A stretch of DNA of 61,769 bases, from positions 1-61,769 of IMG/VR virus record IMGVR_UViG_3300020419_000016. One strand, written 5' to 3'. Position numbers and translations under genes: made by a program. This stretch comes from a virus (Duplodnaviria > Caudoviricetes). Under the pieces are notes generated by a model. The model searched no databases, was not told where the DNA came from, and saw only the letters and a list, made by a program, of their open reading frames with translations. Within the stretch, counting starts at the first letter, position 1. Each line of letters begins with the position of its first letter. Shown here piece after piece: positions 1 through 59,253 of the stretch.

Positions 1-621
1 ATCAATAGTAGCTAATTGTTCGTCTGTGTAAGGAAACCTTTCACTACCGAAGTCAATTACAAGTGGTTGTAGAGCTAGACTAAAATTTTCAGCTTCTTTT
101 ACTAGTTTTTTTGTAAGTTCTACTCCGTTGTTAAATCTATCTAAATCTGTATGCATCATGATGTTTACATGCGTTCTACAAACCTTAGTCATAATTTTAA
201 CAACTTCTAAAAAGTGATCAGCTTCTGCACTTTCAGGATGAAAACTTAAACATACATGATCGAAATTATTTTTATTCTTTTCCCACCAACGAATAGTACG
301 ACTAGCATTACTAATAAATCCTATATCATGTCCTTTAGATTTGATGTATTGAGCACATTTGATAAAGTCTTTCCATAAGGTTACTTCTCCACCAGTAAAT
401 TCAAAATAAACTTTTCTTGGAGCGTAATGAGCTTCGCAAGAATCAATAAACTTTTTAATTACTTCAAAGTCTTGCCAACCAAAGCTACCGTTGTTTAAAA
501 TAGGAGGACAGTAACTACAAGAGTAATTACACATGTTTCCTAAATTCCAATTCACAACGACCCAGTCCTTAGCCTCTTTGTGATGATGGTCTAGGACATC
601 ATAAATCATATCAGTTTGCAT
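1..621 (-). CDS. Radical SAM protein, truncated at the window edge
   Basis: Not in the ORF track; translated by hand from the ATG at 621: MQTDMIYDVLDHHHKEAKDWVVVNWNLGNMCNYSCSYCP...FEFTGGEVTLW...ISNASR. Contains the CxxxCxxC cluster motif and the GGE motif. Open to base 1. Confidence 0.9.
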   Translation of the reverse strand, partial: MQTDMIYDVLDHHHKEAKDWVVVNWNLGNMCNYSCSYCPPILNNGSFGWQDFEVIKKFIDSCEAHYAPRKVYFEFTGGEVTLWKDFIKCAQYIKSKGHDIGFISNASRTIRWWEKNKNNFDHVCLSFHPESAEADHFLEVVKIMTKVCRTHVNIMMHTDLDRFNNGVELTKKLVKEAENFSLALQPLVIDFGSERFPYTDEQLATID

Positions 622-13032: not shown

Positions 13033-13040
13033 TATTTATC
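13033..13040 (-). promoter_or_regulatory. T4-like late promoter (GATAAATA)
   Basis: Overlaps the stop codon of the giant ORF, upstream of the gene starting at 13013. Confidence 0.6.
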
Positions 13041-28000: not shown

Positions 28001-28590
28001 AATTTAATAGTAGGATTTTGTGTAAGTCCGTCAGGAGAAAATACATATCCAAAATTATCTAAATTATCAGCAATGCTTACTGTGTATGTACTAACTACTT
28101 CTGTAGTTTGTCCCCTGACATCAATTGTCTGCGGACCACTTGGAAGCCAATAGTATTCTCTAAAATTAATAAACTTATCCCAATTGATATGAGGATTCCA
28201 ACTATAATATTCTTGCTTATTAGTTATATTATGATCTTTAACTTTATCATTAAAACTAGAAAGTTGATTCATGTAATCATTATAATCTTTATAAAATTTT
28301 ACAGAATCTAAATTATCTTTAATAACAGCTGCAGGTTCAAATTGATAGTTTTGTCTACTATCGGAAAAATCACCTATATAATTGTCATCTTTATCAAATG
28401 ATGATGCAGTCTCACGACCATAATAACCGTTTAACTTTTCAACTACTCCTGGTTGGACTAATTGGTCTATAGTACTAGCTAGAAATTTACTATTAGGTAC
28501 TGTTCTAAAATATTTTGGAAGATGCTGTTCAGTTTTTCTTTTTGCATTTGGATCAGCTGTTCCGTCTTTTTGATGATTATCAAAAGCCAT
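13036..28590 (-). CDS. Giant 5184-aa baseplate-associated structural protein (gp7-like position) with propeller and carbohydrate-binding-like repeats
   Basis: Uninterrupted 15.5-kb ORF coupled to gp6 through TAATG. Contains FG-GAP-like repeats, five YxxGDIV-type modules, GxGYxxxP repeats and C-terminal FxxDGxxxxFxL repeats. Confidence 0.75.
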   Translation of the reverse strand: MAFDNHQKDGTADPNAKRKTEQHLPKYFRTVPNSKFLASTIDQLVQPGVVEKLNGYYGRETASSFDKDDNYIGDFSDSRQNYQFEPAAVIKDNLDSVKFYKDYNDYMNQLSSFNDKVKDHNITNKQEYYSWNPHINWDKFINFREYYWLPSGPQTIDVRGQTTEVVSTYTVSIADNLDNFGYVFSPDGLTQNPTIKLFRGVTYKFDINTPGLPFTIRTKRTLDDTFMLSASDNLIDNQGTEEGVITFTPTATTPNILYYVADNDIEAAGLIKVANIEESSAIDIDAEVLGKKTYTTGAGFDLSNGMKIKFIGEVTPAKYATGEYYVEGVGDKIVLINEDELTVPSAFVADVDVDFDVQGFDRQPFDTAIGYPTVRDYMLINRSANDGNLWSRYNRWFHKSVIEQSATLNQQPVSIDESARAKRPIIEFDKGLKLFDFGTKIKTNVNLLDTHTKDVFSTIEGSTGYNIDGVDLIDGMRILFTADPDPLVKGRIFEVKFFKFDGPEIEIDQNIKQISLIEVADSKPITNEVVLVSQGTSYKGLMYYYNGTEWKQAQTKTKVNQAPLFDLFDENNKSFSDTTVYNSSTFKGNKIFSYKEGAIGTADSEVGLVLSYRTITNVGDITFKFDLLADYFEYLIGSQLYYKNTDIGFLQKYSAIATYTNANAWTKAPTDSKQPVVRQYVFDNTTSAFEVDVYENSASLADLNLTVFLNNQLKLKDVDYTLGTSANNLTTVTFLQPAFTSATGLTIGDKIVFKTNSVASKNDNGYYEFPSNLERNPLNNNLNEFTVGEVNNHVSSIVEDLPDFTGKFPGASNLRDLGDVTRFGNRFVKHSSPLNLAMYSLLDKDSNLISSMRFARREYGKFKRLFLQVAHDLGWEGPAKEHVDKIMADLNKDKVNSMPFYFSDMVPQGSFNKTTHEIDDNTEEYFLLSKTFSLDTASRDAVQVYLNGRQLVHKKDYVFNSEGFCRVTANKAKGDLLDIYEYETTNGSYVPPTPSKLGLYPSYQPELYIDNTTQSEGPVSPSGAYKFYGTAGSNQMGAGKVGWFWPLYATQAEAVAKDTEQGGAGSAHTHTFVGLNRTFYMPNSSANHGTTNPNQNINEWIEGTPVIQGHDGSKIVAYKDYRDHLVLELELRIFNNIKIAYDSDLFDIHNFQGGEFRTTDFSKTAVDSPMLSDFIQWSTLVDKDYTLNDFHNRTNTWTFNYSSAASPNGNDLPGFWRGVYRHAYDTDRPHTHPWEMIGFTKMPTWWETQYGPAPYTRDNLVLWTDLQNGVVREPNKKIKILNKYKRPGLLTHLPVDASGNLLSPNDSGYAQSFDSARLDDSFKFGDEAPVETAWRRSSEYPFSLITAWTLSQPSKVLATGFDRVNQVRNLTKQIIYKTQSNQIKLKDLIFPNTQLDSTQTFTSGLVNYVAGYMASNVVTSYTEYKQNLKSITNQIGFKVGGYTDKNKFKLILDSRTPLNEGNVFVPDENYNIFLNKSAPIKTISYSGLIIERRTNGYKIKGYDNSSTTFKYFPHFERDRDPVITVGGTSEPFLEFEGGRTYTVGAIVEHSGKYYRVTKQHIAGDTFEESNFASIPKLPTTGGREITLRREFATFAPLELPYGTILPTIQDVCDFIQGYGKYLESIGFVFDNFRKSASVVDDWETSTKEFAFWTLHNWAEGTLISLSPGANQLKFKTDYSVVDNIFDGFFGYTLLKVDGQKLTSDFIQVDRQEPTEFILRPKNTADGIFAIKLPCVQKEHVVLLDNKTVFNDTIYDPEPGYRQERIKVLGYRTTNWDGSLNIEGFVYDQATITDWQPNKDYFIGDIVKHKEFYYTANSKVPGTESFIDNQWSRLDSKPESGLTPNFEYKTNQFADFYDLDSDNFDSEQQRLAQHLIGYQKRKYLENIINDDVSQYKFYQGFIQDKGTKNALTKLFDVLGNTDKDSLEFYEEWAIKRGQYGAASGFDEVEYKLDENKFRLSPQPIELVKSVTGEETDLIYRIQPYETYLKPKNYTHAPFPKKYIASEQGFVKDSGYVNQEDVKFVVKDFDSILNIDFATCNQGDLIWVGNDKLTWNIYRHDDTDLIVEKVTGGETEFTVTLTSTPQNIKAGDIFGVYDLISTTLDPGDSTFANAQTTKGAVGGFFKVKSISLEKVTFETAEEVQDIDECIGKLSKLVSVRTDSLANLNDIAQKLATLKSKFWVDKADGNNWTVYENTEAFLKLQDISSGESINNETFATAITTNKSNTVLAVGSPDEDDGQVYIYTRGSASANFVLSQVVTAPTDTAFTYKRFYTGVTYTVGDLVKANNLFYTVAETHIAGVNFDVSKFTPLTTPPKLQKFGSAISLTEDGKYLVVGSPNASNVKTRYKNDYNASSSYVLDDIVNYNNKLWKATTSIVPQSASIQFTSFGSVVQQIESVGNTTQSSEQIDVILTGKYPFTGITVDHVLVKAPKLQYAGLDINDQIKLKWNKKTIANQEQTTYTDKEPFPGGGMSELSSTFFSSTHQIQMKVDLILNINAFTNQPVAGDKIQTQTGSGTVAYSYEVGGSIGLYINEITGSFSSTDSLFLSNGDFVGEYTTAAPSETTDVSSYYGGYFMITVPGGYQIFTTTSDQGKGLVYQEAITDSSAPSNYYYNSRDYETATVSSEDTLASYIETLSYQGLPGAAGVTTPFLSPYYVIRAPKPLTDTLSNGSTFKMFIPSLARYTSGISNDPSAIGLTYAQTNSELTVYDLWDGYIKFGFTKFNLFGEPFEPRVGDTVRDVTTGATAKITFYQRDALNATIFVKDVVGNFSNGSIFGNNAEIEFLGSPTDPSPIYQVDRVMGEIQKKSLGLASEDIGKLIVVDTGANISLPTTSAMTDTEYWFYQENTVSGVPVAANLPSAGNNDWINVYSIPAVSGATASTLENQGMYSVFGTGTTNRYAFLQSYIVPEAKEDFYLGSEIRCAKKNNLYRLFVHAGEDYNTFRDFRNLNKQFDDSTFQPGRTYFIKHGTDVDGNVWDWELAKDKKFQGTYSSLVSYQTGDIIYLDGGIYKANTNLAPGFFNGANWTQQTQPLDYLGYVPNNTEILPIFDSADPSTVLDQGGLFNFNRIDVSDDGEVLIGLARYDGGEKSQVVVYRNKNGNYQRTQSIMESSFPAQTDDDDQWSTEKTLWGSDIAISSDGNMIAIGEPFAETQRSETDPSRIQFDQGRVFVMKKNVTTGLFELSQTLFSRGNEKVELFGVKLSFDTKTLAITAKNADSDAKTTFDSLEAIPQTTWDNNFTTFAKKFIDTGVVYLYENIDDNLVYGQTIAYNELSDSTQAVANTDSSNSIRDFGLNLYTKNSHVYVGLPKHTTFAGENGAVIDFRKDPTKNIWKAHSSPKDTVDVAKIKKVLLYNTKENKLVSYIDYLDPVQGKIPGIAEQELSYKLHYDPAVYSLGTSNVNTSKAEVWGEEQVGELWWDLSTAKFLNAYQGNTIFSVNNWNTQFTGNSVDVYEWVETTLTPSQWNMTSASTEGVTEGVTGTTKYDDTIYSTKRIYDEISQTFSNKYYYWVKGRITAPNIETRKLSAFNVARYIDDPASMGYRFINFISPTSFVLYNCESLLKDNEVALSIQYWTIENQDINIHNQYQLYTAGLDTSKPNADIERKWFDSLIGYDSAGRIVPDPNLSAKEKYGILNDPRQSWFVNKTEALKQVIDRVNIVLKRNLIVDDKIITPLLSKQEVPLAAGNTYDLAVDTFEDLEFVGTAKVKQAVLTPVVVDGKIVRVTVTEPGRGYKVVPNVEINGRYETAANITVTINSVGAVTSATVNSQGSGYDSTLTTLAIRRFAVLVRSDSTLSGKWSVYERNINNTLWVRKVSQVFDTSLFWDYIDWYDTGYNEFTDINHLIDSSYQLESLDDNTGDVIKIANVGTGGWLLLEKIDNADSIDYTINYKTIGRQNGTIKFLPSLFNTTVGSGFDSASYDIKVYDVQPVKETRIILEALRDNLFIDELAVEYNNLFLSSLKYVFTEQGLVDWAFKTSFIKARHNVGDLSKKITFQNDNLPSYEEYLKEVKPFKSKLREYISDYNQLNVSANLVTDFDLPPRWEDETKSIVPPSVKVIDNAIVGTNTDLTTYPNKNWVDNLSYKINRVEIADAGSGYTQPPVIKFVGQDLSTSETGTGATAIAKLGQGGKIASIEVTNKGTGYLNPPVVEVNGSIREGGKPAKLVAILGDGLVRGMHTTVKFDRVTGKFIVTKLSESQTFVGSGSAYVFDLIFPMDLKTNTVEITIAGELSLQSEYTYENIKDTTKGYDRYFGRVTFTKPPANNTSIVIKYKKPIEYLTAADRVSLAYNPVAGQFGNDLSQVMDGIDYGGVEVKSFEFGGNTGWDSAPWYTDSWDTYDTTYEDEVFTLDGSTISITLSKPLENGVVYNLYRNGIRLDDPNWAPEPGYDSALVKNPNAIMQSITGDGTTTVIELQELEVPTQADDVIIVRKETSDGSFINDPESYDTSITGGTLAYTSATGLKAEDITIDGDGFVTPTTSKGPEEIVPGQVLDAVDISVFERPVGGSSIVVNRNYIGDGSTKVFDLGKTPFTGSSLFVKVGSDILEPTTDDSTLGYKVNYANKTVDFEVAPAEGSKINLTLVEVAGLQILDIDSFVSDGSSNNFETNVRWTDNVQGIATSNGVKLEAVFVKSTGSHPNNVELVLASPLKAGDVVRFALFIGDGNEIDSFSQVVVDEFIATKPQGNDTLLLSQAPFSYGPAGIHTLVQIGDDILHSGFNQQFTVSSARDYKLDLWQIPIALVQSSQIQVYLNGRILEYATDWTFTSAEAFDSDTPLDQQKGNTVKLADSIGVAGDTLLVYIITESQYRFGYFEQQGDSSNVFVPTPTICSFEVDRPIGTRMKVYQFSNSTAQKFERESYTVQENTPITKGTPEYYFLNNLRAGLFKLRSPAVDSKYAWVILNNKLLLADVDYSVTTDKNFIKLVSPLNEGDRIEVLHFGNPTVITKFGFRQFKDMLNRTHYKRIDGDKNYILGKDLTPYDKTIELVDASGITNPTAGSEYPGIIFVNGERIEYRLKEGNLLKQLQRGTLGTGVNDLHSSGTEVYDQSIDASMPYKDETISTVFTADGTSSTFELDFTPGAGGVNEFDVFVAGQRLRKNAISSYKFETTINGVTTSSIAQDSPEGDETLPAEFSILGSTLTLLNAPGENQKVIIIRKQGKRWTDPGTALSQADTDIGRFLRATSVDLPR

Positions 28591-31500
28591 TAGTAACCTC
28601 CGCTACTACTTGAACCTGAGCTACTTGAACTACTACTTGAACTACTACTTGAACTACTACTTGAACTACTACTTGAACTACTACTTGATGAAGTTGTTGT
28701 ATTTGACGAGGTGGACGAGCTAATTGATGCAGCAGTTGTTGTTGAACTTTGTATACCAGCAGATACTCGTGTACTGGACGTAACAACGGCACCGTCATTT
28801 GCTCTTAATCTTGTTGCTGTAACTGCATCTATAACATCAACGTTATCTACAGTTGCACCACTTATAAAAATTTCATCACTTTCTGATTTTATTTCATATA
28901 AACTTCCAAATACCTGTGATGACTGGGTTGGAACAATAATGAATGTAACTAAATCTGGAGTCATTTGCGACATAACGTAATTTGCCATTTCTGAGAAGAA
29001 AAACTTATCTCCAAAGTCCCAGTTTTCTAATGCAAAGTATTCATTTATAGCGGCAACAATTCTTGATTTAACATCATTATCGTTTAATACTAAATCAGGA
29101 TTTTTTACTACTTTAAATGTTGCTTGCAAATCTGTATCTGCCTTTGTTCCAAATAATACTTTGTACTTAACTGGATGATAAATTATTTCATCTGATAATG
29201 ACTTAATTTTAGATAGTTGTGTATCATATGATAAAGCTAACGCATCAGAACTTGGTGGCAAAGGTAATGTTCCTGCACCGTTTAAGTATAACCTAAAATC
29301 TGTATCATAGCTTTTGGTTAAAATATATGTGTCAATCAAGTTACTTGCACTTGGATCAATTCTTGAACTATCATCTGCTCCGTGAATGTAGTGGAATGTA
29401 ATATCATCTCTACCAACTCTTGCTCTATAATCTGTTGTCTGTTTTAATATACCTTCTACACTATCATAAATTTTAAAAATATTTGTTGATGTAAAGTAAA
29501 ATAATTGTCCGTTAGTATACGTGCTTAAAGCAGATAAAGAACCTTCTGTACTTAATACAATCATGCCTAATGTGTTTGCTGAAATATAGTTAAAATCTTC
29601 TACTCCGTCCGTTGTAGTATTCTTTTGTTGGAAAATATATTTTGTTAAAGGGTTTGTAGTTTCATCAACAATAGTATCAAAAATATCTGGATCATCTACG
29701 ACTCCGTCGTCATCGCTATCAAAAAACGTAATTTCTATTTTCTTACTATCAACATAACCTTCAGCATCTCTATATTCTTCAGTAAGTTCCCAATCATAAT
29801 TAACTGTAAATGGTAATGCACTATCTGGTTTAGTGTTAATGTTTAATACACTAATTTTATCTTTAACAATTTTACCAGTTAGATTGTTATAAATTTTGTC
29901 TGTTTTATCAAAGTAAAATCTCATTTCTTGATTACTTTCAAAGATATATCTCATTGCTCTATTTTTAATAGTGTAAGTCTCGCCGTTAGTTTCAAATAGT
30001 AGCATCCAACTAGCGTCTAATTGCTGATTTGATATATCTCCTGTTTTACCTGTACTGAATGATGCTGTAACATTTAGGTTATTTTCTGTTACAATTCTCC
30101 AAGACTGAGAATCAGTGCTATATCTTAAACCAAATGTTTTATAAGCAAACACTTGATCAATAAGTTGCGTTGCAACATCAGTTTCAAGAGAACCTGCTAA
30201 GCCAGGAATAATTTCAGCTAATCTAGATCCTGTAGGAATAATATCATTTAATGATACAGGACCTTGTCCAGTTGATGCTATTATAGTACCATCGCCTGTT
30301 ACCGCTGCTATCTTAACCCATTTATAGTCAACTACTCCTTTTTTACCTTGATAACCAGTATTACTTACTAAGTCTGTGTTTAAGAAACTTTGTCCTGTTG
30401 GTGGTAAAAATTTAATTAACGATCCTGGAACTATTAATTTTAATAATGATGATGTAAATGTTCCTAATTGTGATTTTACATCTGCAGAGTTTTTAAAATA
30501 TCCTGTGCTTAGGTTTGTAGTTTTGGTTGATTGTACCCAAGTTACTCCTAAGTCTACAGTTGAAATTTTAGGAAAATTATTATAATAATAATTCCTAACT
30601 TTCTTATCTCTTAAGATAGGTTGAATTGTGTTTACTATTGCTCCTTCAACATCTGTTTTTGTAGTAAAAGTAAATGTTGTTTTTGGCTCTAGATTTTCTT
30701 TAAATAAAACTCCGTCTGTTCCATATAGATTTGTTTTACTGTACTTTCCAGTTGCATCAATTAGATCAAAATATCTAGATATTCCGCTTGATGTTCTGTT
30801 AATAGACTTAACTTTAATAATTTCTTGACTTACACCTAAAGGTGAAATTTGGTAGTCTTCACCTGTTACCATTCTGTTTTGTGTGTAATAAGTTGACGGA
30901 GCGTTTTGTTTAATACTTGCATTCGATTCGCTCTCTGTTGAATTATCAACAGTATACTTTAATTCATATGTAAGTGTTAGTGTTTCAATCTTATCAGTCT
31001 TTGACAAATAAGGTATAGAAACAGTTATGCCTCTCATATCGTCTGGTGTTATTATTACTCTTTCATTTTTACTTACTCTGTAAAATACACGGAAGCTACC
31101 TTTAGGTAAATTTCCAAACACTCCATCTGAAAACATTAAACTAATTCTATCATCAACTCTAGTTAAAACTGCATAAACGTTATTAATACTTTTACTTAAA
31201 CTATTGTAAACAACATTGTTACCTTCTACCGAATCAACTTTTGTCCATAGTTCTTGTTCAGCACCAAAAGAATCTAATTTATAAAGCCATACGTCTGAAT
31301 TATTTACATTTGTAGCATCAATTGAAACAACTTGATTTGTACTAGGAGTTGTTATGTTAAACACTCCTTCATCAATTGCTCCTTCTCTAAAGTGACTAAA
31401 AAATCCTGTATTGCTACTTGCACTACCTCTTCCGTCATCTCTATATAAAAATGCAAAGTTATTTCCTGGAAACGGTGCTTCTTCTTGAATTACTTTGTCA

Positions 31501-32159
31501 ACTACGTCTGTTGATACAATTTCAAATCTAACAGAACGTCCATCTATATTCTTAGCAAAGCTATATACAGGAACTTCTGAGTTTGTGCTTAACATACGAT
31601 ATTGCTCAGTAGGAATACCATTAGCAGTATCTTTTTTAATTGGTCTGCCAAATTTAGCATTTACAGGTAATGTTGAATTCATTACTTTTACAAACTGTTC
31701 ATACCAGTCTGGATTTGTAGGATCGTTCCATACAATAGTTTGATTTGCTAAATTAACGTTATTTGAATCTAGGATTTCTTCTGTAGTGTTTACACTTTCT
31801 ACTTTAAGTAAGCCGTTAGCAGCTTGATTTCTTTTTGGATTATAAGAAAGCAAACGTGCTAAACGCAAAACGCTTTCTCTACGTTCTGCTAATTCTAAGT
31901 AATTTTCTCTTGCATTTAGATCAATACGGAATGAAATATTTTGACCCATATATGCTATTAAATCTATGAGGGCTAAATATTCGCTGGATTCAATATAATC
32001 GTTAAAATCTTCAGGATAATTTTCCCTCAAATAATTGATCATAGTGCGGCGGAGATTATCAAAGTCATAGCTCTGAAAATCTGCATTACGAAAAGATTGA
32101 TATATGCGTCTCCAATCTTCTGCAAGTAATAATCTATTCTGTCTATCTGTTGCCGGCAT
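28590..32159 (-). CDS. gp6: Baseplate wedge protein gp6
   Basis: DFDNLRRTMINYLR...FNDY...ALIDLIAY...ENYLELAERRESVLRLARLLSYNPKR and ESNASIKQNAP...QNRMVTGEDY are gp6/baseplate-J signatures; adjacent to gp25. Confidence 0.88.
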   Translation of the reverse strand: MPATDRQNRLLLAEDWRRIYQSFRNADFQSYDFDNLRRTMINYLRENYPEDFNDYIESSEYLALIDLIAYMGQNISFRIDLNARENYLELAERRESVLRLARLLSYNPKRNQAANGLLKVESVNTTEEILDSNNVNLANQTIVWNDPTNPDWYEQFVKVMNSTLPVNAKFGRPIKKDTANGIPTEQYRMLSTNSEVPVYSFAKNIDGRSVRFEIVSTDVVDKVIQEEAPFPGNNFAFLYRDDGRGSASSNTGFFSHFREGAIDEGVFNITTPSTNQVVSIDATNVNNSDVWLYKLDSFGAEQELWTKVDSVEGNNVVYNSLSKSINNVYAVLTRVDDRISLMFSDGVFGNLPKGSFRVFYRVSKNERVIITPDDMRGITVSIPYLSKTDKIETLTLTYELKYTVDNSTESESNASIKQNAPSTYYTQNRMVTGEDYQISPLGVSQEIIKVKSINRTSSGISRYFDLIDATGKYSKTNLYGTDGVLFKENLEPKTTFTFTTKTDVEGAIVNTIQPILRDKKVRNYYYNNFPKISTVDLGVTWVQSTKTTNLSTGYFKNSADVKSQLGTFTSSLLKLIVPGSLIKFLPPTGQSFLNTDLVSNTGYQGKKGVVDYKWVKIAAVTGDGTIIASTGQGPVSLNDIIPTGSRLAEIIPGLAGSLETDVATQLIDQVFAYKTFGLRYSTDSQSWRIVTENNLNVTASFSTGKTGDISNQQLDASWMLLFETNGETYTIKNRAMRYIFESNQEMRFYFDKTDKIYNNLTGKIVKDKISVLNINTKPDSALPFTVNYDWELTEEYRDAEGYVDSKKIEITFFDSDDDGVVDDPDIFDTIVDETTNPLTKYIFQQKNTTTDGVEDFNYISANTLGMIVLSTEGSLSALSTYTNGQLFYFTSTNIFKIYDSVEGILKQTTDYRARVGRDDITFHYIHGADDSSRIDPSASNLIDTYILTKSYDTDFRLYLNGAGTLPLPPSSDALALSYDTQLSKIKSLSDEIIYHPVKYKVLFGTKADTDLQATFKVVKNPDLVLNDNDVKSRIVAAINEYFALENWDFGDKFFFSEMANYVMSQMTPDLVTFIIVPTQSSQVFGSLYEIKSESDEIFISGATVDNVDVIDAVTATRLRANDGAVVTSSTRVSAGIQSSTTTAASISSSTSSNTTTSSSSSSSSSSSSSSSSSSSSSSSSSGSSSSGGY
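28621..28688. repeat. 12-bp tandem repeat (CTACTTGAACTA x5 plus a partial copy) encoding the poly-Ser tail of gp6
   Basis: Five perfect copies at 28621-28680 plus CTACTTGA. The coding strand reads TCA AGT AGT AGT (SSSS). Confidence 0.95.
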
Positions 32160-38526: not shown

Positions 38527-38534
38527 TATTTAGT
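38527..38534 (-). promoter_or_regulatory. Late-type promoter (ACTAAATA) for the baseplate operon
   Basis: Minus strand TAAATA-ATGTATAGGAG is nearly identical to TAAATA-CTGTATAGGAG in the promoter at 59257. Confidence 0.55.
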
Positions 38535-38562
38535 TGACAAAATTAACTACATACATTATAAT
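38534..38562 (+). promoter_or_regulatory. Consensus sigma70-type promoter for gp55
   Basis: TTGACA (38534-38539), 17-nt spacer, TATAAT (38557-38562); GGAG RBS follows. Confidence 0.88.
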
Positions 38563-51121: not shown

Positions 51122-52105
51122 ATGGCAGATTCAAAACAATTCGAAGAAATGCTCGAGAAACTTGTTAATGAAGACAAGGCCGGAGCAGAAGAACTTTTCC
51201 ACAATATTGTGGTTCAGAAATCCAGAGAAATTTACGAAAATCTATTAGAAGACGATCTAGAAGACGAGTCAGTTGATGAAGCATCTGATGAGGAAGTAGA
51301 TGAAGCATCTGATGAGGAAGTAGATGAAGCGTCTAAAGATGAAGAAGTAGACGAAGCTACTGACGAAGAAGTAGATGAAGCTTCTAAAGATGAAGAAGTT
51401 GAAGAAGATTTCAACTTAGACGAATTTGAAGTTGAAGGCGAAGACGATGCTGACATGGGCATGGATGCAGGCGATCCTGCAGACGACATGATGGCTGATA
51501 TCGCTGACATGGGCGACGAAGAAGGCGAAGGCGAAGGCGACGACGAGCCAGAAGGTGACGTTGAAGAAAGAGTCGGCGACTTAGAAGACGCTCTAGACGA
51601 ACTTAAAGCAGAATTTGAAGATATGATGGCAGGCGACGAAGGCGGAGATGACGAAGCTGAAGACGAAATGCCAGCTGATGACGCTGAAATGGACGCAGAT
51701 GATGAAGAAGGCGATGACGAAGAAATGCCAGAAGCATCAGATGAAGAAGTTGATGAAACATCAGATGACGAGGTTGAGGAAGGTTCTAAAGAAGAACTAT
51801 CTCCAACAGAGCAGATGCGTGAATATGTTGAAAAAGTAACACCTAAAATGGGCGACAACGGTGCAAACACCAAGTCTCCAGTAGCAGGTGCGAACGACAT
51901 GGGCGGAGATGCTTCTAACTTAGCACAAGGCGCAGACGAAAAAGGCATGACACCAGCAAGTCCAAAAGACATTGCAAGCGGTAACGTAAATGTACCAGGT
52001 GGAAAAGCTTCTAAGTCAATGAAAGCTAATGCTAAAGGCCATGGCGCAGAGAAAAAAGGCGCAGGCGACACAGCTGCTAATAAAAAAAGTACTATTGGTA
52101 GCTAA
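51122..52105 (+). CDS. Highly acidic prohead core or scaffold-like protein
   Basis: Very Asp/Glu-rich with repeated VDEASDEE units; immediately upstream of the prohead protease. Confidence 0.7.
   Translation: MADSKQFEEMLEKLVNEDKAGAEELFHNIVVQKSREIYENLLEDDLEDESVDEASDEEVDEASDEEVDEASKDEEVDEATDEEVDEASKDEEVEEDFNLDEFEVEGEDDADMGMDAGDPADDMMADIADMGDEEGEGEGDDEPEGDVEERVGDLEDALDELKAEFEDMMAGDEGGDDEAEDEMPADDAEMDADDEEGDDEEMPEASDEEVDETSDDEVEEGSKEELSPTEQMREYVEKVTPKMGDNGANTKSPVAGANDMGGDASNLAQGADEKGMTPASPKDIASGNVNVPGGKASKSMKANAKGHGAEKKGAGDTAANKKSTIGS
51272..51406 (+). repeat. Degenerate 24/27-bp tandem repeat encoding VDEAS(K)DEE
   Basis: Five GTnGAyGAAGCn... units in frame. Confidence 0.9.
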
Positions 52106-52124
52106 TTAATATAAGGAAACTTGG

Positions 52125-52748
52125 ATGCAAAATTTATCTGAGACACTGACATTCGACCAAGCAAAAATAGTCGTTGAGTCTGCCAATGAAGGGAAAGACT
52201 TGTATATGAAAGGTATTTGTATACAAGGCGGAGTACGCAACGCTAACCAGCGTGTTTATCCTGTACAAGAAATTGGTAGGGCTGTCAAAACTCTCAACGA
52301 TCAATGCTCAGGAGGATATAGTGTTCTCGGCGAAGTTGATCATCCAGAGGGACTGAATATTAATTTAGATCGTGTTAGCCATATGATCACAGAAATGTGG
52401 ATGGAAGGCGACAACGGTTACGGAAAACTTAAAATTTTACCAACACCTATGGGGGTCCTAGTTAAAACAATGCTTGAAAGCGGAGTTAAACTAGGAGTCT
52501 CGTCACGTGGTTCAGGTAACGTATCAGAAAGTGGAAACGGAGAAGTTTCTGACTTTGAAATTATCACTGTGGACGTTGTGGCTCAGCCAAGCGCCCCTGG
52601 TGCATATCCAACTCCAATTTATGAGCAACTTATGAATGCAAGAGGTGGAATGAAGGCTTACGAATTTGCACAGGCAACTAAAGAAGATCCTAAGGCACAA
52701 AAATATTTAAAAGAATCTCTGATTAATATAATCAGCAGACTCCAATAA
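52125..52748 (+). CDS. gp21: Prohead protease gp21
   Basis: NANQRVYP, GEVDHP, GVSSRGSG and DVVAQPSAP motifs give the His/Ser/Asp triad. Confidence 0.96.
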   Translation: MQNLSETLTFDQAKIVVESANEGKDLYMKGICIQGGVRNANQRVYPVQEIGRAVKTLNDQCSGGYSVLGEVDHPEGLNINLDRVSHMITEMWMEGDNGYGKLKILPTPMGVLVKTMLESGVKLGVSSRGSGNVSESGNGEVSDFEIITVDVVAQPSAPGAYPTPIYEQLMNARGGMKAYEFAQATKEDPKAQKYLKESLINIISRLQ

Positions 52749-52763
52749 AAGGAGATAAAAAAC

Positions 52764-53855
52764 ATGTTGGATGCACTAAAAACACTTTTCGAAAATGACG
52801 TTGTTTCGGATGAAGTGCGTACTCAAATTGAAGAAGCGTGGACAGCAAAACTTAAAGAAAATAGACTTGCTGTAACCGCTGAACTCCGTGAAGAATTCGC
52901 TCAGAAATATGAACATGACAAAGCTACTATGGTAGAAGCTATTGACAATTTAGTATCTGAGAGATTAACTGCTGAAGTAGCTGAATTTACAGAAGACCGT
53001 AAACAGCTTTCAGAAGCAAAAGCAAAATATGCAGTAGCAATGCGTGAAAATGCAGGGTTACTAAAAGGTTTTGTGATGGAAGCACTTAAAAAAGAAGTTT
53101 CCGAACTTCACGAAGAACAAAAAGCAATGGCTAACAATTTTTCTAAATTAGAAGAGTTTGTAGTCGACGCACTAGCCAACGAAATATCTGAGTTCTACGA
53201 AGATAAAAAAGACTTAGCTGCTACTAAGGTTAAACTTGTTAAAGAAGCTAAGAAACACTTGGCCAAAGTTAAAGAAAACTTTGTACAAAGAAGTGCTAAA
53301 GCAGTATCTTCAACAGTTGATAAAGCTCTTAGAGGAGAAATTAATCAACTTAAAGAAGACATTGATGCAGCACGTAAAAACGACTTTGGGCGGAAATTGT
53401 TTGAAGCATTTGCAAATGAATATCAAGGAAGCTATTTGAATGAAAAATCAGAAACTTCTAAGCTATTAAAAGTTGTTAATGTTAAAGACAAGCAGTTAGC
53501 TGAAGCAAAAGCATTTGCTGTTAAAGCAAAGAAAGTTGTTGAAGCACAAGAAGCTGAAAAGAAACAGCTTGTTGAATCTGCACAGCGTAAAGAGATCATG
53601 CATGGCTTGGTTGCACCATTAAGCAATCAACAGCAAGAGATTATGAAAGACTTACTGGAATCAGTTCAAACAAACAGATTACAATCTCAGTTTGAAAAAT
53701 ACTTACCGACAGTTATTGACGGCGAAGCACCAGAGAAAGCTAAAAAGGCGAAACTTACAGAAGGCAAAGAAATTACAGGCAATAGAGAAATAGTTCAAAC
53801 TAGTAAAACAGTAGACGATAATGTCGTTGACATTAGACGTTTAGCTGGAATTTAA
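52764..53855 (+). CDS. gp22: Prohead scaffolding protein gp22
   Basis: Coiled-coil, Glu/Lys/Ala-rich protein between the protease and capsid genes; FGRKLFEAF motif. Confidence 0.82.
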   Translation: MLDALKTLFENDVVSDEVRTQIEEAWTAKLKENRLAVTAELREEFAQKYEHDKATMVEAIDNLVSERLTAEVAEFTEDRKQLSEAKAKYAVAMRENAGLLKGFVMEALKKEVSELHEEQKAMANNFSKLEEFVVDALANEISEFYEDKKDLAATKVKLVKEAKKHLAKVKENFVQRSAKAVSSTVDKALRGEINQLKEDIDAARKNDFGRKLFEAFANEYQGSYLNEKSETSKLLKVVNVKDKQLAEAKAFAVKAKKVVEAQEAEKKQLVESAQRKEIMHGLVAPLSNQQQEIMKDLLESVQTNRLQSQFEKYLPTVIDGEAPEKAKKAKLTEGKEITGNREIVQTSKTVDDNVVDIRRLAGI

Positions 53856-53869
53856 TAAGGAGATATAAT

Positions 53870-55039
53870 ATGTCAGAACTACTAGAAAGTCGCTGGCAGG
53901 AGACCAAAGGTGCTCTTCTTGAAGGCTTAAATGGCAACAAGAAGGCAGTTATGGCAAGTACACTTGAGAACACTCGTAAGTATTTGTCAGAGGCCGCAGG
54001 CACTGGTGCAACTTCCGCCGGTAATATCGCAACACTTAATCGTGTTATTCTTCCAGTCATCAGACGTGTGATGCCAACCGTTATTGCTAACGATTTGGTA
54101 GGCGTACAACCAATGACAGGACCAGTGGGTCAGATCCACACACTTCGCGTTCGTTATGCTGAAAGCAACGACAACGCAACAGCAGGTGAAGAGGCTCTTA
54201 GCCCATTCAAAATTGCTACAGCTTATTCAGGTGCGGGCACAGACCCATCTGGAACAGCAGACGCAACTGCAACCTTAGAAGGTGACGCTGGACGTAAAAT
54301 GTCCATCCAGATCTTAAAACAGACTGTAGAAGCAAAATCCAGAAAGCTATCAGCTCGTTGGACTTTTGAAGCTGCACAGGACGCTCAGTCCATGCACGGT
54401 ATTGATGTAGAAGCAGAAATTATGGCTGCTTTAGCACAAGAAATTACCGCTGAAATTGATCAAGAGATCATTCAGAGCTTAACTACATTGTCTGGTACAG
54501 CCGCTCAGACTTATGATCAAGCTGCTGTGTCTGGTACAGCTACTTTCGTTGGTGATGAGCATGCAGCTCTTGCAGTTCAAATTAACAGAGTATCAAACTT
54601 GATCGCTCAACGTACAAGACGTGGCGCAGGTAACTGGGCTGTTGTATCGCCATTCGCGTTAACAATCCTACAATCTGCAACAACTTCTGCGTTTGCACGT
54701 ACTACTGAAGGTACTTTTGAAGCACCAACTAACACTAAGATGGTTGGAACTTTAAACGGTGCAATGAAAGTATACGTCAACACATATGCTGGTGATAATG
54801 CTCCAGTACTTGTTGGCTACAAAGGTACTAGCGAATCTGATGCTGCTGCATTCTACTGCCCATACATTCCATTAATGAGCAGTGGTGTAGTGTTAGATCC
54901 AACATCATTCGAGCCAGTCGTGAGCTTCATGACTAGATACGGATATGTTGAATTATCTAACTCAGCTTCATCCCTTGGTAACGCGGCTGATTACTTAGCT
55001 AACGTTGCGATTACTAACGGTAACGTAAGCTTCAGCTAA
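53870..55039 (+). CDS. gp23: Major capsid protein gp23
   Basis: VGVQPMTGPVGQI, VEAKSRKLSARWTFEAAQD, EITAEIDQEII, AFYCPYIPL and FMTRYG motifs. Confidence 0.97.
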   Translation: MSELLESRWQETKGALLEGLNGNKKAVMASTLENTRKYLSEAAGTGATSAGNIATLNRVILPVIRRVMPTVIANDLVGVQPMTGPVGQIHTLRVRYAESNDNATAGEEALSPFKIATAYSGAGTDPSGTADATATLEGDAGRKMSIQILKQTVEAKSRKLSARWTFEAAQDAQSMHGIDVEAEIMAALAQEITAEIDQEIIQSLTTLSGTAAQTYDQAAVSGTATFVGDEHAALAVQINRVSNLIAQRTRRGAGNWAVVSPFALTILQSATTSAFARTTEGTFEAPTNTKMVGTLNGAMKVYVNTYAGDNAPVLVGYKGTSESDAAAFYCPYIPLMSSGVVLDPTSFEPVVSFMTRYGYVELSNSASSLGNAADYLANVAITNGNVSFS

Positions 55040-55055
55040 TAGTTTACAAAACTTG

Positions 55056-55085
55056 AAAATAGGCCCTACGGGGCCTATTTTTTTG
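55056..55085 (+). terminator. Rho-independent terminator after gp23
   Basis: AAAATAGGCCC-TACG-GGGCCTATTTT followed by further T residues. Confidence 0.9.
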
Positions 55086-55186
55086 ACTGATGAAAAAAGA
55101 CAAAGATTTTGTCCTTGAAACAATTTACGAAAAAAAGACAGACTATAGCACAACTTGGTTAGTGCGTATTAAATCAAAAAAATAAA

Positions 55187-55429
55187 ATGTCACTTAAGAA
55201 AAAAGGTATAGGAAAACTACATCATGGAAGACCTATTGCGTATGCTTTATTAGATGAAGAAGATTACAAGCATATCTATACACGTAAAGATCGTATTAGA
55301 ATAGGAGTAGAGATTGCGTTTTTTATAAGCGTAGCTTATATAATCGCAGATATAGCATACATGACATGGTTTGAAGACAAATATAACATTTTTGGACAAG
55401 TAAACCAATTTATTTACATGCTTCCGTAA
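55187..55429 (+). CDS. Small hypothetical membrane protein
   Basis: 80 aa with one hydrophobic helix (IGVEIAFFISVAYIIADIAYMTWF). No clear RBS, so the start is uncertain. Confidence 0.45.
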   Translation: MSLKKKGIGKLHHGRPIAYALLDEEDYKHIYTRKDRIRIGVEIAFFISVAYIIADIAYMTWFEDKYNIFGQVNQFIYMLP

Positions 55430-55437
55430 AAAAAAGG

Positions 55438-55466
55438 TTGACATTATAGTAAAAGTTTGCTATAGT
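55438..55466 (+). promoter_or_regulatory. Sigma70-type promoter driving a non-coding transcript
   Basis: TTGACA (55438-55443), 17-nt spacer, TATAGT (55461-55466); A-tract upstream. Confidence 0.8.
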
Positions 55467-55472
55467 GTATAC

Positions 55473-55720
55473 ATAAGCTAAAAACTTGTAGCTAGAGTTT
55501 TTATATAGTGCAAGGAAGAGGCGTTTACCAGAGCGTCGAACTTGACTAGTTAGGGGTGGTACCCAGGCTTGGTAGTAGAAATACGCTGAGTCACATCGCT
55601 CTCCCGAGCGGAACTAGGTTCCCTGGTTATCAGAATGGCATCTGTGGCGAGGGGTTGTAGGTATAACCGAGTCCTACCTATACTTGCTTATACTAAAAAG
55701 ACGCTTCGGCGTCTTTTTTT
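55473..55720 (+). ncRNA. Putative stand-alone structured ncRNA of unrecognised family
   Basis: Bounded by a promoter and a terminator. A GC-rich multi-branched domain is closed by the helix 55504-55514/55683-55692, with many G-U pairs and a GAAA tetraloop. Confidence 0.75.
55695..55720 (+). terminator. Rho-independent terminator
   Basis: AAAAAGACGC-TTCG-GCGTCTTTTTTT, with a C(UUCG)G loop and a U-tract. Confidence 0.92.
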
Positions 55721-55723
55721 CTC

Positions 55724-55731
55724 TATAAATA
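55724..55731 (+). promoter_or_regulatory. T4-like late promoter (TATAAATA), 5 nt before the ATG
   Basis: TATAAATA-ATTGT-ATG(55737). Confidence 0.7.
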
Positions 55732-55736
55732 ATTGT

Positions 55737-56705
55737 ATGAAATATTGTAGAGAACCTTTTATCCACTCTGAAATAAATCCAAAAGGTGATATAAGACTAT
55801 GCTGTGGATCGTGGCATCCTAAAATAGTTGGTAATATTCATCAAAGTCCATTAGAAGAAATATGGACTAACAAAGAATCACAAAAAGTTAGAGAATCAAT
55901 TAATGATCAATCTTACAAATATTGTAAATTAGAAATTTGTCCTCAGCCATTTCAGTCTACTCCTATTAATGTCCACACACGTTTACCAAAAGTGTTAAAA
56001 TTTAGTTTTGATAATAGTTGTAATTTAGAATGTCCTTCATGCAGGAGTAGTAAAATACAGCATGTAAAAGGATCTAAAGAATACAACGAATCAATGTCAA
56101 TACTTAACAAAGTAAAAGAGTCGTATTATAAATTTGGTGTAGATCAACCTACAGTTTTTATTATAACTGGATCAGGAGATCCCTTTGGTAGTGATGTATT
56201 TAGAAATTTTTTATATGATTTTGATGGTAGGAAAGTACCTAATTTAAAATTTGTATTTTTAACAAACGGTGTAATGCTCACGCCAAAGGTTATAAACAAG
56301 ATTAGTAAGATCTATAATAACATTAAACAGATGAATATCAGTATAGATTCAGCAACTCCTGACACATACAATGTTGTTCGTAAAGGCGGAAACTTTACGC
56401 AATTACAAAAAAATATAGAATACTTACATAACTTCAAACAGTTCAATCATGTAAAATTTTGTTATTCATTTGTAATACAAAATACAAATTTTGCTGAAAT
56501 AGAACCTTTTGTAGAATGGATTTTAACATATCCCAGAGCAAGTGTTAGATTTACTAGGATATTAAACTGGAGTGATATGGCAATTGATTTTAACAAAGAG
56601 AATATTTTCAGCCCAGATCATCCAAACTACACAAAATTACAAGAAACTTTAGCAAAAATAAAGCATATCCCAAACATAGACTTTCATAACGTTTTGTCTA
56701 AGTAG
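55737..56705 (+). CDS. Radical SAM protein with an N-terminal SPASM/twitch-like auxiliary cluster domain
   Basis: CNLECPSC (CxxxCxxC), GSGDPF, TNG and ISIDS motifs; N-terminal CREPF...GDIRLCC...GNI...EEIW...C. Start moved from 55635, which lies inside the ncRNA. Confidence 0.88.
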   Translation: MKYCREPFIHSEINPKGDIRLCCGSWHPKIVGNIHQSPLEEIWTNKESQKVRESINDQSYKYCKLEICPQPFQSTPINVHTRLPKVLKFSFDNSCNLECPSCRSSKIQHVKGSKEYNESMSILNKVKESYYKFGVDQPTVFIITGSGDPFGSDVFRNFLYDFDGRKVPNLKFVFLTNGVMLTPKVINKISKIYNNIKQMNISIDSATPDTYNVVRKGGNFTQLQKNIEYLHNFKQFNHVKFCYSFVIQNTNFAEIEPFVEWILTYPRASVRFTRILNWSDMAIDFNKENIFSPDHPNYTKLQETLAKIKHIPNIDFHNVLSK

Positions 56706-56799
56706 ATAAATACTATTGTCATAAATCGTGTCACTTAAAGTGGACTTATGCAGAATTGACCCACTGCGTATTACGTAAAAAGTATAAAGGAGAAAACAA
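56705..56799 (+). promoter_or_regulatory. Late promoter (GATAAATA, 56705-56712) plus a structured 5' leader
   Basis: Hairpins CACT-TAA-AGTG and TATGCAG/CTGCGTA lie upstream of the AAGGAG RBS. Confidence 0.5.
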
Positions 56800-57159
56800 A
56801 TGGGAAGACCAATTAATAAGAGATTTTTTGGCGCAACAGGCGACAATACTCAACCAACTATAGCAATTAGATATCATGACGGTACAGCATCTAGAGAAGG
56901 ATTTATCCTTTCTCAAAGAGGTACTAACAAATTTAATTGTGATAGTGCCGCTGGTACTGCAAAAATTTGCAGACTAGTAAATGAAATTGCACCTAATGCA
57001 GAAGGTGAATGTTCTTTAGTAGGTATTACACCAGGTGGTGGAGCAATAATACTTAAAAAAATGTTCAACAGAACAGCAGTAGACTTTGATAACAATCGTT
57101 ACAAGTGGGCTGTTGAAGATGATTCAACAGAATCATTAATTAGGTTAACAGCTATTTAA
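56800..57159 (+). CDS. Hypothetical late protein, probably a virion component
   Basis: Strong RBS and late promoter; first gene of the structural cluster. Confidence 0.7.
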   Translation: MGRPINKRFFGATGDNTQPTIAIRYHDGTASREGFILSQRGTNKFNCDSAAGTAKICRLVNEIAPNAEGECSLVGITPGGGAIILKKMFNRTAVDFDNNRYKWAVEDDSTESLIRLTAI

Positions 57160-57162
57160 TAT

Positions 57163-57186
57163 AATAGGGGGAGAAATCCCCCTATT
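57163..57186 (+). terminator. Stable hairpin (terminator or processing site)
   Basis: AATAGGGGGA-GAAA-TCCCCCTATT, a 10-bp stem with only a short U-tract. Confidence 0.65.
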
Positions 57187-57201
57187 TAAAAAGGATTAAG
57201 A

Positions 57202-58212
57202 ATGTCAAAGTATTTAAGAATAGGAAATGGTGATTATAATATCGTTACAAAAGAAGGCGGTGAAATCACATTAGATACAACTGATGGAAACTTAAATGGC
57301 ACAGGTAAAGTTATTGTTACTGGAGGATTAGAAGTCCAAGGTGATAGTACTACTTACAATTCAACAGTAGTTGCAATAGCTGATAACATCATTGTACTTT
57401 CTAAAGATAATACTGCTTCAGGAATTCCTGCGGCACTCAATTATAGAAGTGGTGTAGAAATTGAAAGAGGATCTCAAGCAAATGCATTTATGGTGTATGA
57501 TGAACAACTTGCTTGGACTCTTGGAGGAACGTCGGGCCAAGGAACATGGACTTTTGAACAAGGTGCAACTACAGTACCTATTAAAGCAACAGGAATGTTT
57601 TCAGATTCTAACTTATTTTTTAATCCAGGAACGGGTATTATATCAGTAACAAATACAACTAACTACGAGCAAAGAGTATTTCAGTATGGTGGTGGAATAG
57701 TTACGGGCGGAGCAATTGACGATGATATTATACCAAATGCAAAAGGCGTAATAGATTACGTTACTTATGCACTTGCATCAGGCGCAGTTCCTGCTAGACT
57801 ACAAGAATCAGATACTTCAATCGAAGCACATGACTTTAGTGTAACTGGAACAGATAGTAAACTACAATTTGATATTAACGGTGTAGCTAAAGCAAATTTA
57901 TTTGCAGACAGACTTGAAGCATTTGACATAATGATCCAAAACAATGAGATTACAACTACAGCTAGTAATACTGACTTAGTGCTAGGATCTCCAGGAACAG
58001 GATCAGTAAAAATTAAAGATAATATTGAAATAACTGAAACACCTGGTGAGAATGATGTTGCTACAGATCCAAGTGTACCGGTTGAAGGTATTAAGATATA
58101 TTCAAAAACACAATCAACTGGTGGTTCAGGATTGTTTTTCGTTAATAAGAGTAGTAACAGAGACGAATTGATAAGTAAGAATAAAGCACTAGTGTATAGT
58201 ATGGTGTTCTAA
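57202..58212 (+). CDS. Virion structural or fibre-like protein
   Basis: Gly/Thr-rich; IADNIIVL...GVEIERG resembles a block in the fibre gene 8457-10370. Confidence 0.6.
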   Translation: MSKYLRIGNGDYNIVTKEGGEITLDTTDGNLNGTGKVIVTGGLEVQGDSTTYNSTVVAIADNIIVLSKDNTASGIPAALNYRSGVEIERGSQANAFMVYDEQLAWTLGGTSGQGTWTFEQGATTVPIKATGMFSDSNLFFNPGTGIISVTNTTNYEQRVFQYGGGIVTGGAIDDDIIPNAKGVIDYVTYALASGAVPARLQESDTSIEAHDFSVTGTDSKLQFDINGVAKANLFADRLEAFDIMIQNNEITTTASNTDLVLGSPGTGSVKIKDNIEITETPGENDVATDPSVPVEGIKIYSKTQSTGGSGLFFVNKSSNRDELISKNKALVYSMVF

Positions 58213-58223
58213 AGGAAATAAAA

Positions 58224-58580
58224 ATGGCAATAACAACAAATCAATTAACATTAACACAATTAGACGCATTAACTGTACCTTCTGATAAAACATATGCAAT
58301 TACAAATGTATTAGTATGTAACACATATAGTCCAAGTGGCGGAAGTGCTGCAACTAGAGGTGCAAATTTTACAATGCATATTATTCCTTCAGGAAGTGCA
58401 TTAAACAATAACGTAACTTGTGTTGTTAAAGAGTTAACATTACCTGCAGGAGAAACTTTTACATTTGATTCAGAAAGAATTATTTTAGAAACAGGTGATA
58501 AACTTACTTTTACAGCTTCTCCAGATCAAGGTTCAGGAAACACAGATTTAGCGTGTACAGTTAGTTATATGGAAGTATAA
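58224..58580 (+). CDS. Small beta-rich virion protein
   Basis: YAITNVLVCN...LPAGETFTF...IILETGDKL...VSYMEV; AAGGA RBS. Confidence 0.6.
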   Translation: MAITTNQLTLTQLDALTVPSDKTYAITNVLVCNTYSPSGGSAATRGANFTMHIIPSGSALNNNVTCVVKELTLPAGETFTFDSERIILETGDKLTFTASPDQGSGNTDLACTVSYMEV

Positions 58581-58581
58581 G

Positions 58582-59253
58582 ATGCGTTTACTTAAAGGTC
58601 AAAATACTAACCAACGTAACGTATACGGCAGAGGTGTACAAGTAGATACATTAGATCAAGTAATTGCTGAAAGTACAAATTCAATTCGTGTGCCTATGGG
58701 TACAACAGCTCAAAGACCTACTACTCCAGCTAACGGACAAATTAGATATAATACTTCAAATAATAAATTTGAAGGATACGAAAATTCAGCGTGGAGAAAC
58801 TTACGATATGCTGAACCATTTCCAACAGGTATTATTCAACAAAGTTTAGGAAACGGGGATGCAACTGCTGTTTGTTTTGGACCGTTGAATTCACAAGATA
58901 CAAATCAAGTTGCTCCGGCAGCAGCCCAAAATGTAATTGTTCTTGTTGAAAATGTCTTTCAGTTAGCAACAACAAACTACACTATGGTACAGAATCCATC
59001 TGCAGCAACAGGAACTGGTTCAGAAGTTACTGCTGGTTCTTTCCAAGTAAGTACAGAATACAAAATTGTAACAGTTGGCACAACAGACTTTACAACTATT
59101 GGTGCCAGTGCAAATACTGTAGACACAGTATTCACAGCTACAGGAGCTGGTACAGGAAATGGTACAGCAAGACCAACCGGATATTATCTAGTATTTACAT
59201 CAGCACCTGATGCAGGTAAACCAGTAACTGCCCTACATAACTTCGATAAGTAA
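58582..59253 (+). CDS. Tail-fibre-associated protein
   Basis: VPMGTTAQRP...GQIRYNTSNNKFEGY fibre motif. Confidence 0.65.
   Translation: MRLLKGQNTNQRNVYGRGVQVDTLDQVIAESTNSIRVPMGTTAQRPTTPANGQIRYNTSNNKFEGYENSAWRNLRYAEPFPTGIIQQSLGNGDATAVCFGPLNSQDTNQVAPAAAQNVIVLVENVFQLATTNYTMVQNPSAATGTGSEVTAGSFQVSTEYKIVTVGTTDFTTIGASANTVDTVFTATGAGTGNGTARPTGYYLVFTSAPDAGKPVTALHNFDK

Follow-up and report, generated by a model that had tools for sequence, protein, structure and literature searches.

A manA-family RNA as a probable stand-alone, trans-acting transcript of a marine jumbo phage

The IMG/VR viral record IMGVR_UViG_3300020419_000016 (Duplodnaviria; Caudoviricetes), whose 61,769 bases form the window analysed here (CheckV completeness 17), carries a structured RNA of the manA family directly behind its major capsid gene. 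We consider it probable that this marine jumbo phage encodes the RNA as a transcription unit of its own and that the RNA works in trans as a folded RNA, most likely as a homo-oligomer. In the proposed scheme, the host sigma70 RNA polymerase would start at about position 55473 and stop at an intrinsic terminator at about 55720, and the released RNA of about 250 nucleotides (nt) would pair its 5' end with its 3' tail through a terminal helix, P0, which would close a compact multi-helix domain. The cassette would be uncoupled from the radical SAM gene that follows it, the latter having a late-promoter-like motif, TATAAATA, of its own. The RNA would then act as a folded particle rather than as a cis switch and, by analogy with what other manA RNAs do in vitro, its most likely form would be a homo-oligomer. 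All features described below are on the plus strand unless stated otherwise.

All 192 positions of the Rfam manA model (RF01745) were found to align to 55482-55687 of the window, with an E-value of 9.6e-12 and a score of 56.4 bits, which is only a small margin over the gathering score of 55.2 bits. This was the sole match at the gathering threshold in an Rfam scan of the whole window. The element is a full-length member of a described RNA family and not a new class; the preliminary description, made from the sequence alone, had expected no described motif and had named such a match as grounds for refutation, and this claim to novelty falls with the Rfam match. What the window RNA adds is one more member of a family that is already known. 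According to the portion of the original report used here, manA was first described as a riboswitch candidate in marine metagenomes, T4-like cyanophages and two gamma-proteobacteria, is commonly located in potential 5' untranslated regions and was classed as cis-regulatory (Weinberg et al. 2010, PMC2864571). No ligand for manA was found in the manA literature searched. The same literature, in the portions available to us, does not describe the terminated stand-alone layout as a jumbo-phage rule, the P0 helix or the capsid-gene cargo slot, and its supplements may mention terminated copies or a P0-like helix.

The only blastn match among 50,697 phage records covered 61% of the query at 77.6% identity; it lies in Pelagibacter phage Mosig, in an unannotated stretch that Rfam calls manA with 64 bits. 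The family was not found in Vibrio phage 2.275.O, which has the closest capsid protein, or in cyanophage Syn9. Eight of 20 sister loci reach the Rfam manA cut-off and the other 12 are missed. A subfamily covariance model (R1) finds the canonical manA of P-SSM2 at the correct site and at full length (L125, 1496-1708), although weakly (20.8 bits, E-value 0.0015, with E-values of this model being rough).

The window RNA shares with the canonical manA (P-SSM2, 142837-143034) the multi-helix architecture, with all 192 model positions aligned, as well as the AGUG and GGUGGU signatures, a GNRA-capped middle hairpin, occurrence in marine phages and a sigma70-type promoter immediately 5' of the RNA. 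It differs in its Rfam score (56.4 bits against 181.6 for the P-SSM2 copy), in the P0 helix that lies outside the Rfam model, in being carried by a jumbo phage rather than a T4-like cyanophage and in what comes after the RNA, which is an intrinsic terminator in the window and a gene start in P-SSM2. The copy in Mosig EXVC030M (MT647606, 108164-108371, minus strand) resembles that of the window in its manA match and in its TTGACA-17-TATATT promoter, but it has no terminator and its P0 reads AATGC/GCATT.

The fold is supported by comparison among homologues. A search of viral contigs with a short gapped pattern, derived from the window sequence, gave at least 119 matching stretches. Four of these (L116, L009, L019 and L049) were chance matches and were removed before any counting; loci with too little flank were also left out, and identical sequences were collapsed. 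In an alignment of 71 distinct homologues from viral contigs, the 43 pairs predicted by RNAalifold match the architecture of the Rfam manA model, and changes on both sides were observed for 27 of them. Paired cells amounted to 98.6% against 28-51% in slid controls, and the covariation score was 0.488 against at most 0.096 in the controls, with none of 500 shuffles as good. The structure is somewhat favoured because it was derived from the same alignment, but with so wide a gap and so many types of pair, little doubt remains. The 250-nt stretch also folds more stably than its shuffles (z -3.36; 1 of 200 as good). The structured character of the RNA, which had been proposed from the sequence, is borne out by compensatory change. 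Its lack of a credible open reading frame (ORF) holds as well: the sole internal ORF is a 34-amino-acid GTG frame, and single-base indels occur among the homologues.

The manA core (55482-55687) is preceded by and partly overlaps the P1 hairpin of the Rfam model, TAAAAACTT paired with GAGTTTTTA (55479-55503; strands 55479-87 and 55495-55503), in which the stem sequence varies among homologues while pairing is retained. In the alignment, the closing helix of the core is formed by 55504-08 and 55678-82. The helices within it are 55511-14/55541-44, 55520-24/55533-37, the covarying 55546-51/55612-17 (CTAGTT/AACTAG), 55553-55/55562-64, a helix of two segments capped by a GAAA loop (55567-71/55587-91 with 55575-77/55582-84), 55596-99/55608-11, the covarying 55621-24/55651-54 (CCCT/GGGG) and 55657-61/55673-77. 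Much of the first structural sketch survives in the 71 homologues, namely the 5' hairpin, GGCGT/GCGTC, the GAAA-capped hairpin (GGCTTG../..GAGTC) and CGCTC-TCCC-GAGCG, and the GTAGG/CCTAC pairing, which had been offered as an alternative only, is supported by covariation. Other helices of that sketch do not persist across the same homologues: GAAC/GTTC is paired in 68.7% of cells, CTGG/TCAG in 49.8% and GGTTGT/ATAACC in 69.5%. The suggested contact of the TCCC loop with GGGG reaches 58.1%, and this GGGG (55651-54) covaries with CCCT at 55621-24. For the closing helix, TATAG (55504-08) had been correctly named as the 5' strand, but its partner is CTATA at 55678-82 and not TTATA at 55688-92. The adjoining GCAAG/CTTGC is 91.5% paired, with its 5' side fixed by the search pattern and its 3' side overlapping P0.

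P0 is, on comparative evidence, a covarying helix that lies outside the Rfam manA model. Its 5' strand, ATAAGC (55473-55478), begins where transcription is predicted to start (at about 55473, 7 nt past the -10 element), and its 3' strand, GCTTAT (55686-55691), is located inside a conserved 3' tail, TTTTGCTTAT, which is unpaired in the Rfam model. The helix is present in the minimum-energy fold. Across 57 distinct pairs of 5' and 3' segments, matched segments gave -7.07 kcal/mol and permuted ones -5.46 +/- 0.19, with none of 500 permutations as good. Sequence relatedness inflates this permutation test; the distinct helix types are independent of that. As examples of compensatory versions, AATGC/GCATT, ATATGC/GCATAT, ATAAGTA/TACTTAT, CAATACC/GGTATTG and ATAATAG/CTATTAT were observed. 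P0 would join the predicted 5' end to the 3' tail just ahead of the terminator, which is what a discrete closed RNA would look like.

Upstream of P0 lies a sigma70-type promoter (55438-55466) with the -35 element TTGACA at 55438-43, a 17-nt spacer, a TG at 55458-59 and the -10 element TATAGT at 55461-66. The promoter named in the preliminary description was thus recovered by the promoter scan, with 11 of 12 consensus matches and the TG ahead of the -10 element. A TTGnnn-16..18-TAnnnT arrangement was found at a fixed distance in 71 of 74 unique regions upstream of homologues, and one of the three misses (L026) visibly carries TTGACA-17-TATAGT. Among relatives that carry a closely related capsid gene, all 20 complete manA-type matches have the promoter. 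Early expression of the window RNA would be expected from the type of its promoter.

The 3' boundary is an intrinsic terminator, AAAAAGACGC-TTCG-GCGTCTTTTT followed by a T-run (55695-55722; -11.9 kcal/mol). It had been noted already in the first description, and the terminator scan agrees with a 10-bp hairpin and T-run at 55695-55718 with a UUCG loop and seven U residues; its stem has a probability of 0.92 in the full-length ensemble. Using a hairpin of -7 kcal/mol or better with a U-tract, starting 11-17 nt past the closing helix, as the definition, a terminator was found in 51 of 77 unique contexts. These comprise 33 distinct hairpin sequences with a mean of -12.8 kcal/mol. In the capsid-gene relatives, 18 of the 20 complete matches are terminated, and the terminator is then followed by GATAAATAC, a freshwater-2 RNA and a conserved gene whose protein starts MGRPINK. 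The description of the element as a discrete non-coding RNA unit with a host-type promoter at one end and an intrinsic terminator at the other is consistent with these results, as both boundaries are conserved in relatives.

An aptamer-like domain followed by a terminator and, about 16 nt on, by a gene on the same strand is also the layout of a transcription-attenuating riboswitch, in which a metabolite bound to the manA domain would decide whether transcription passes the 55695-55722 terminator and enters the radical SAM gene. The proposal of manA as a riboswitch candidate and its cis-regulatory listing, in the portion of the original report used here (PMC2864571), fit such a switch, and one GCGTC of P3 could pair with the terminator arm GACGC (-7.9 kcal/mol). 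However, the terminator is located outside the conserved fold and begins 11-17 nt past the closing helix, and its 33 different hairpins stand on near-identical cores. In a search for an antiterminator, the terminator arms did not covary with the core (-8.10 kcal/mol for matched and -8.07 for permuted partners in one comparison, -8.89 for both in the other; p about 0.45-0.53), while the terminator stem has a probability of at least 0.9 in 50 of 51 full-length ensembles. Different loci have different genes behind the terminator, some of them convergent, manA occurs in relatives that have no radical SAM gene, and TATAAATA stands between the terminator and the ATG. We regard this switch as improbable for the window.

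The genes behind manA point in the same direction. The ORFs that follow it fall into 24 sequence clusters. Of 89 instances, 74 share the strand of manA and 15 lie on the other strand; some of the short antisense ORFs are probably spurious. Their Pfam and PHROGs assignments include a tail-like protein, a cytidylyltransferase/mannose-6-phosphate isomerase fusion, gp32, CspA, peroxiredoxin, a TonB-dependent receptor and DNA ligase, and convergent tail-fibre and baseplate genes also occur 3' of some copies. No common functional theme was found among these diverse functions. In the window, TATAAATA occupies 55724-55731, 5 nt ahead of the radical SAM ATG. Within the plus-strand gene block, four of five motifs of this type are intergenic and lie just ahead of ORF starts (50005, 51053, 55724 and 59257), and it is on this position before ORF starts that their reading as late promoters is based. 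The location in a 5' untranslated region that the descriptor 'cis-regulatory' implies does not apply here, since the terminator and TATAAATA lie between the RNA and the next gene and the cassette occurs without the radical SAM gene; this descriptor is contextual and is not part of the RF01745 model. The earlier view that the RNA is unlikely to serve as a leader for the radical SAM gene holds for the same reasons. Taking together the conserved promoter and terminator, the lack of an antiterminator, the diverse next genes and the status of the cassette as cargo, the window manA is unlikely to be a leader or riboswitch of the radical SAM gene and is better read as a stand-alone early RNA.

The cargo status follows from comparison with 80 contigs whose capsid protein is 80-96% identical to that of the window (the capsid-gene relatives). 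The closest of these (L128; 92% nucleotide identity) matches the window only at 52001-55086 and 56705-58998, and the intervening 55087-56704 (about 1.6 kb) is absent from it, which marks this segment as cargo. The segment holds an 80-amino-acid ORF (55187-55429), the manA cassette, TATAAATA and the radical SAM/SPASM gene (55737-56705). In 38 relatives, the distance between the capsid gene and the conserved gene that comes next was observed to vary from 157 to 2040 nt. With the subfamily covariance model, a manA-type RNA was found behind the capsid gene in 21 of the 80 relatives; two (L147 and L179) have manA and lack the radical SAM gene, which occurs in none of the 80. The cassette is an optional cargo in a variable slot directly behind the major capsid gene. 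Phage morons are independent promoter-gene-terminator units inserted between conserved phage genes. The window cassette resembles them in having its own promoter and terminator and in its presence/absence polymorphism at a fixed slot between conserved late genes, but its cargo is an RNA whereas that of a moron is a protein gene.

Upstream of the slot are a T4-type prohead protease (52125-52748), a scaffold-like protein (52764-53855) and the Gp23-type major capsid protein (53870-55039). The capsid protein is 71.6% identical to that of Vibrio phage 2.275.O, followed by those of Sinorhizobium phage Phosso and Yersinia phage fHe-Yen9-04. These nearest matches are jumbo phages with genomes of about 350 kb, in agreement with the low CheckV completeness of the window.

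Parts of the region 53870-56705 are contained in 20 RNA runs from 13 studies, four of which were mapped, as contigs only. The contigs cover the capsid gene and, separately, 55514-55677 (run X2), 55515-55626 (X1) and 55591-55622 (X3). The short contigs, from two studies, lie wholly within 55514-55677, and none falls on 55105-55390 or 55770-56705. Contigs cannot show transcript starts, ends, strand or level, and the uncovered parts prove nothing about ends; they give a weak hint of expression.

Several observations weigh against the stand-alone reading. The ends of the window transcript are predicted from sequence and cannot be mapped with the contigs. The promoter match is not rare within this AT-rich window, where seven sites have no more than one mismatch to the 12 consensus positions and shuffles give 4.9 +/- 2.3 such sites, so that the credibility of the promoter rests on its conservation in relatives and not on window statistics. 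TATAAATA shows no enrichment either: the window has 7 sites, and 12.2 +/- 4.3 would be expected. The radical SAM ATG is located only about 16 nt past the T-run and read-through would yield a joint transcript. Furthermore, 26 of the 77 subfamily contexts have no nearby terminator, nor do 62 of the 88 contexts of classical cyanophage type; promoter-like sites were found in 67 of these 88. In P-SSM2, a gene annotated as purL begins 16 nt after manA, and in Mosig a rubrerythrin gene follows after about 23 nt. The manA family thus exists in both layouts, and the leader-type copies may have a role in cis. As about one third of the subfamily and most classical copies stand without a terminator directly before a gene, the window RNA could be imagined as a cis-acting 5' element (a stabiliser, a processing site or a translation element) of an early transcript that reads through a leaky terminator. 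The window terminator is nevertheless strong and canonical, with its 10 bp, UUCG loop and seven U residues, and behind the 18 terminated copies among 20 in this lineage a distinct promoter-like motif and a distinct leader RNA come next, which makes such an element very improbable here.

The form in which a stand-alone manA RNA would act is suggested by work on other members of the family. A 2026 preprint reports, in the portion available to us, that several manA RNAs form decamers or octamers in vitro and that one forms an icosahedral-like cage of 60 subunits, as seen by cryo-electron microscopy (10.64898/2026.07.01.735769). These assemblies are described there as built from pentamers through loop-loop contacts, including a contact between a GNRA loop and its receptor, while the RNA is still termed putatively cis-regulatory. 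The window RNA carries a GAAA-capped hairpin and a G-rich GGUGGUA loop. Two points temper the extension of these data to the window RNA. Assembly is known, in the accessible portion of this work, only in vitro and for other manA family members; in addition, the window loop UCCC is less complementary to GGUGGUA than the majority loop UACC, which could pair with GGUA, a comparison in which the correspondence of the loops to the preprint's numbering is our own deduction.

The closest functional analogues of the proposed particle would be ROOL and GOLLD, which are likewise phage-encoded, highly structured stand-alone RNAs and of which members form closed homo-oligomers in vitro, as far as the consulted part of the report describes (Kretsch et al. 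2025, PMC12286853). They differ from manA in sharing no sequence or structure homology with it, and no Rfam match to either was found in the window. At about 200 nt, manA is also much shorter. The association with tRNA islands that the same part of the literature gives as typical of ROOL and GOLLD is rare for manA, where tRNA genes were found in 6 of 115 loci.

The main rival to an oligomeric particle is a trans-acting monomer, which could sponge up or sense a small molecule, act as a decoy for a protein or base-pair as a small RNA. It would draw on the same promoter and terminator conservation, and the strongly conserved single-stranded AGUGCAAGGAAG and the GGUGGUA loop could serve as binding sites; the leader-type copies before purine, hsp20, rubrerythrin and peroxiredoxin genes would also suit some sensing role. 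However, the invariance of AGUGCAAGGAAG and GGUGGUA in the homologue set is imposed by the search pattern, no ligand, protein partner or complementary target was found in this analysis, and the only experimental data on manA, to the extent that the preprint could be consulted, concern RNA-only oligomers (10.64898/2026.07.01.735769). We therefore hold the monomer to be rather unlikely, and the folded homo-oligomer remains the preferred form.

A number of further observations concern manA loci in general. Divergent manA-type RNAs occupy the same slot in L133 (5424-5643) and in L159, L176, L170, L144, L184, L153, L189, L156, L181, L183, L185 and L157. They score 39-76 bits with the subfamily model; the one in L133 has a rebuilt central junction and no GGTGGTA loop and reaches 41.3 bits with Rfam, below the cut-off. 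Many cyanophage-type copies are followed by one conserved long hairpin, AGACCTAAGATGCAACT...GGGCAGATGGTCT, and a U-run (L222, L224, L238, L256, L263, L265, L270, L273, L293 and L301), and in L212, L244 and L262 manA is directly followed by an apparent tRNA gene. In 6 of 115 loci (L013, L036, L084, L089, L104 and L113) and in Mosig (L001, 548-886), a phage transfer-messenger RNA gene was found no more than a few kb from manA. In 11 of 20 scanned loci (L014, L028, L057, L017, L075, L023, L030, L010, L037, L069 and L073) and in L133 (5234-5281), manA is preceded, at a distance of about 280 nt, by a glutamine riboswitch (RF01739) with a small ORF; no such riboswitch was found in the window at E-values up to 0.1.

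Around the cassette, a palindromic G+C-rich hairpin between A- and T-runs is located directly 3' of the capsid gene (55056-55081). It is terminator-like on both strands and has retained counterparts in L128 and L133. A contig from RNA run X1 joins 55088 to 55427, which indicates one relative without the 80-amino-acid ORF. The radical SAM protein shows an unusual domain order, with a SPASM-type Cys-rich domain at its N-terminus (residues 4-64) and the radical SAM domain at 93-261, and no close relatives of it were found in viral contigs. Behind this gene, the late-promoter-like GATAAATAC occurs at 56706-14, upstream of the ORF at 56800-57159 whose protein begins MGRPINK. Between them, a freshwater-2 RNA (RF02980) is matched below threshold at 56729-56802 (43.2 bits against a cut-off of 49.9; E-value 1e-4). 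This leader is above the cut-off in 9 of 20 homologous loci and comes after manA in most capsid-gene relatives, whose order of motif, leader and gene the window retains. Elsewhere in the window, a giant ORF of 5184 amino acids (13036-28590, minus strand) adjoins an ORF of 1189 amino acids on the same strand (28590-32159). Perfect sigma70 consensus promoters (12 of 12) were found at 38534-38562 and, on the minus strand, at 4837-4865, both intergenic and at the heads of gene blocks. No tRNA genes were found in the window.

A wider and more tentative proposal can be made for the family. Possibly, manA RNAs are trans-acting particles and not riboswitches, made early from moron-like cassettes of promoter, RNA and terminator, with P0 and the terminator defining a protomer of about 250 nt. 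Pentamer-based closed assemblies in the cell might then sequester or scaffold a host or phage component, and the leader-type copies would be the same particle gene rather than sensors.

For annotation, the finding means that the Rfam cut-off overlooks more than half of this subfamily (12 of 20 loci). For the search for a manA ligand, it suggests that the neighbouring genes are a poor guide. A defined transcript is now available for synthesis and testing. manA has been an unexplained 'riboswitch candidate' since 2010, and the window locus and its relatives, with their conserved host-type promoter, covarying terminal helix, near-constant yet freely varying terminator and place as cargo behind the capsid gene, suggest that a large and abundant group of marine phages carries an independent RNA gene.

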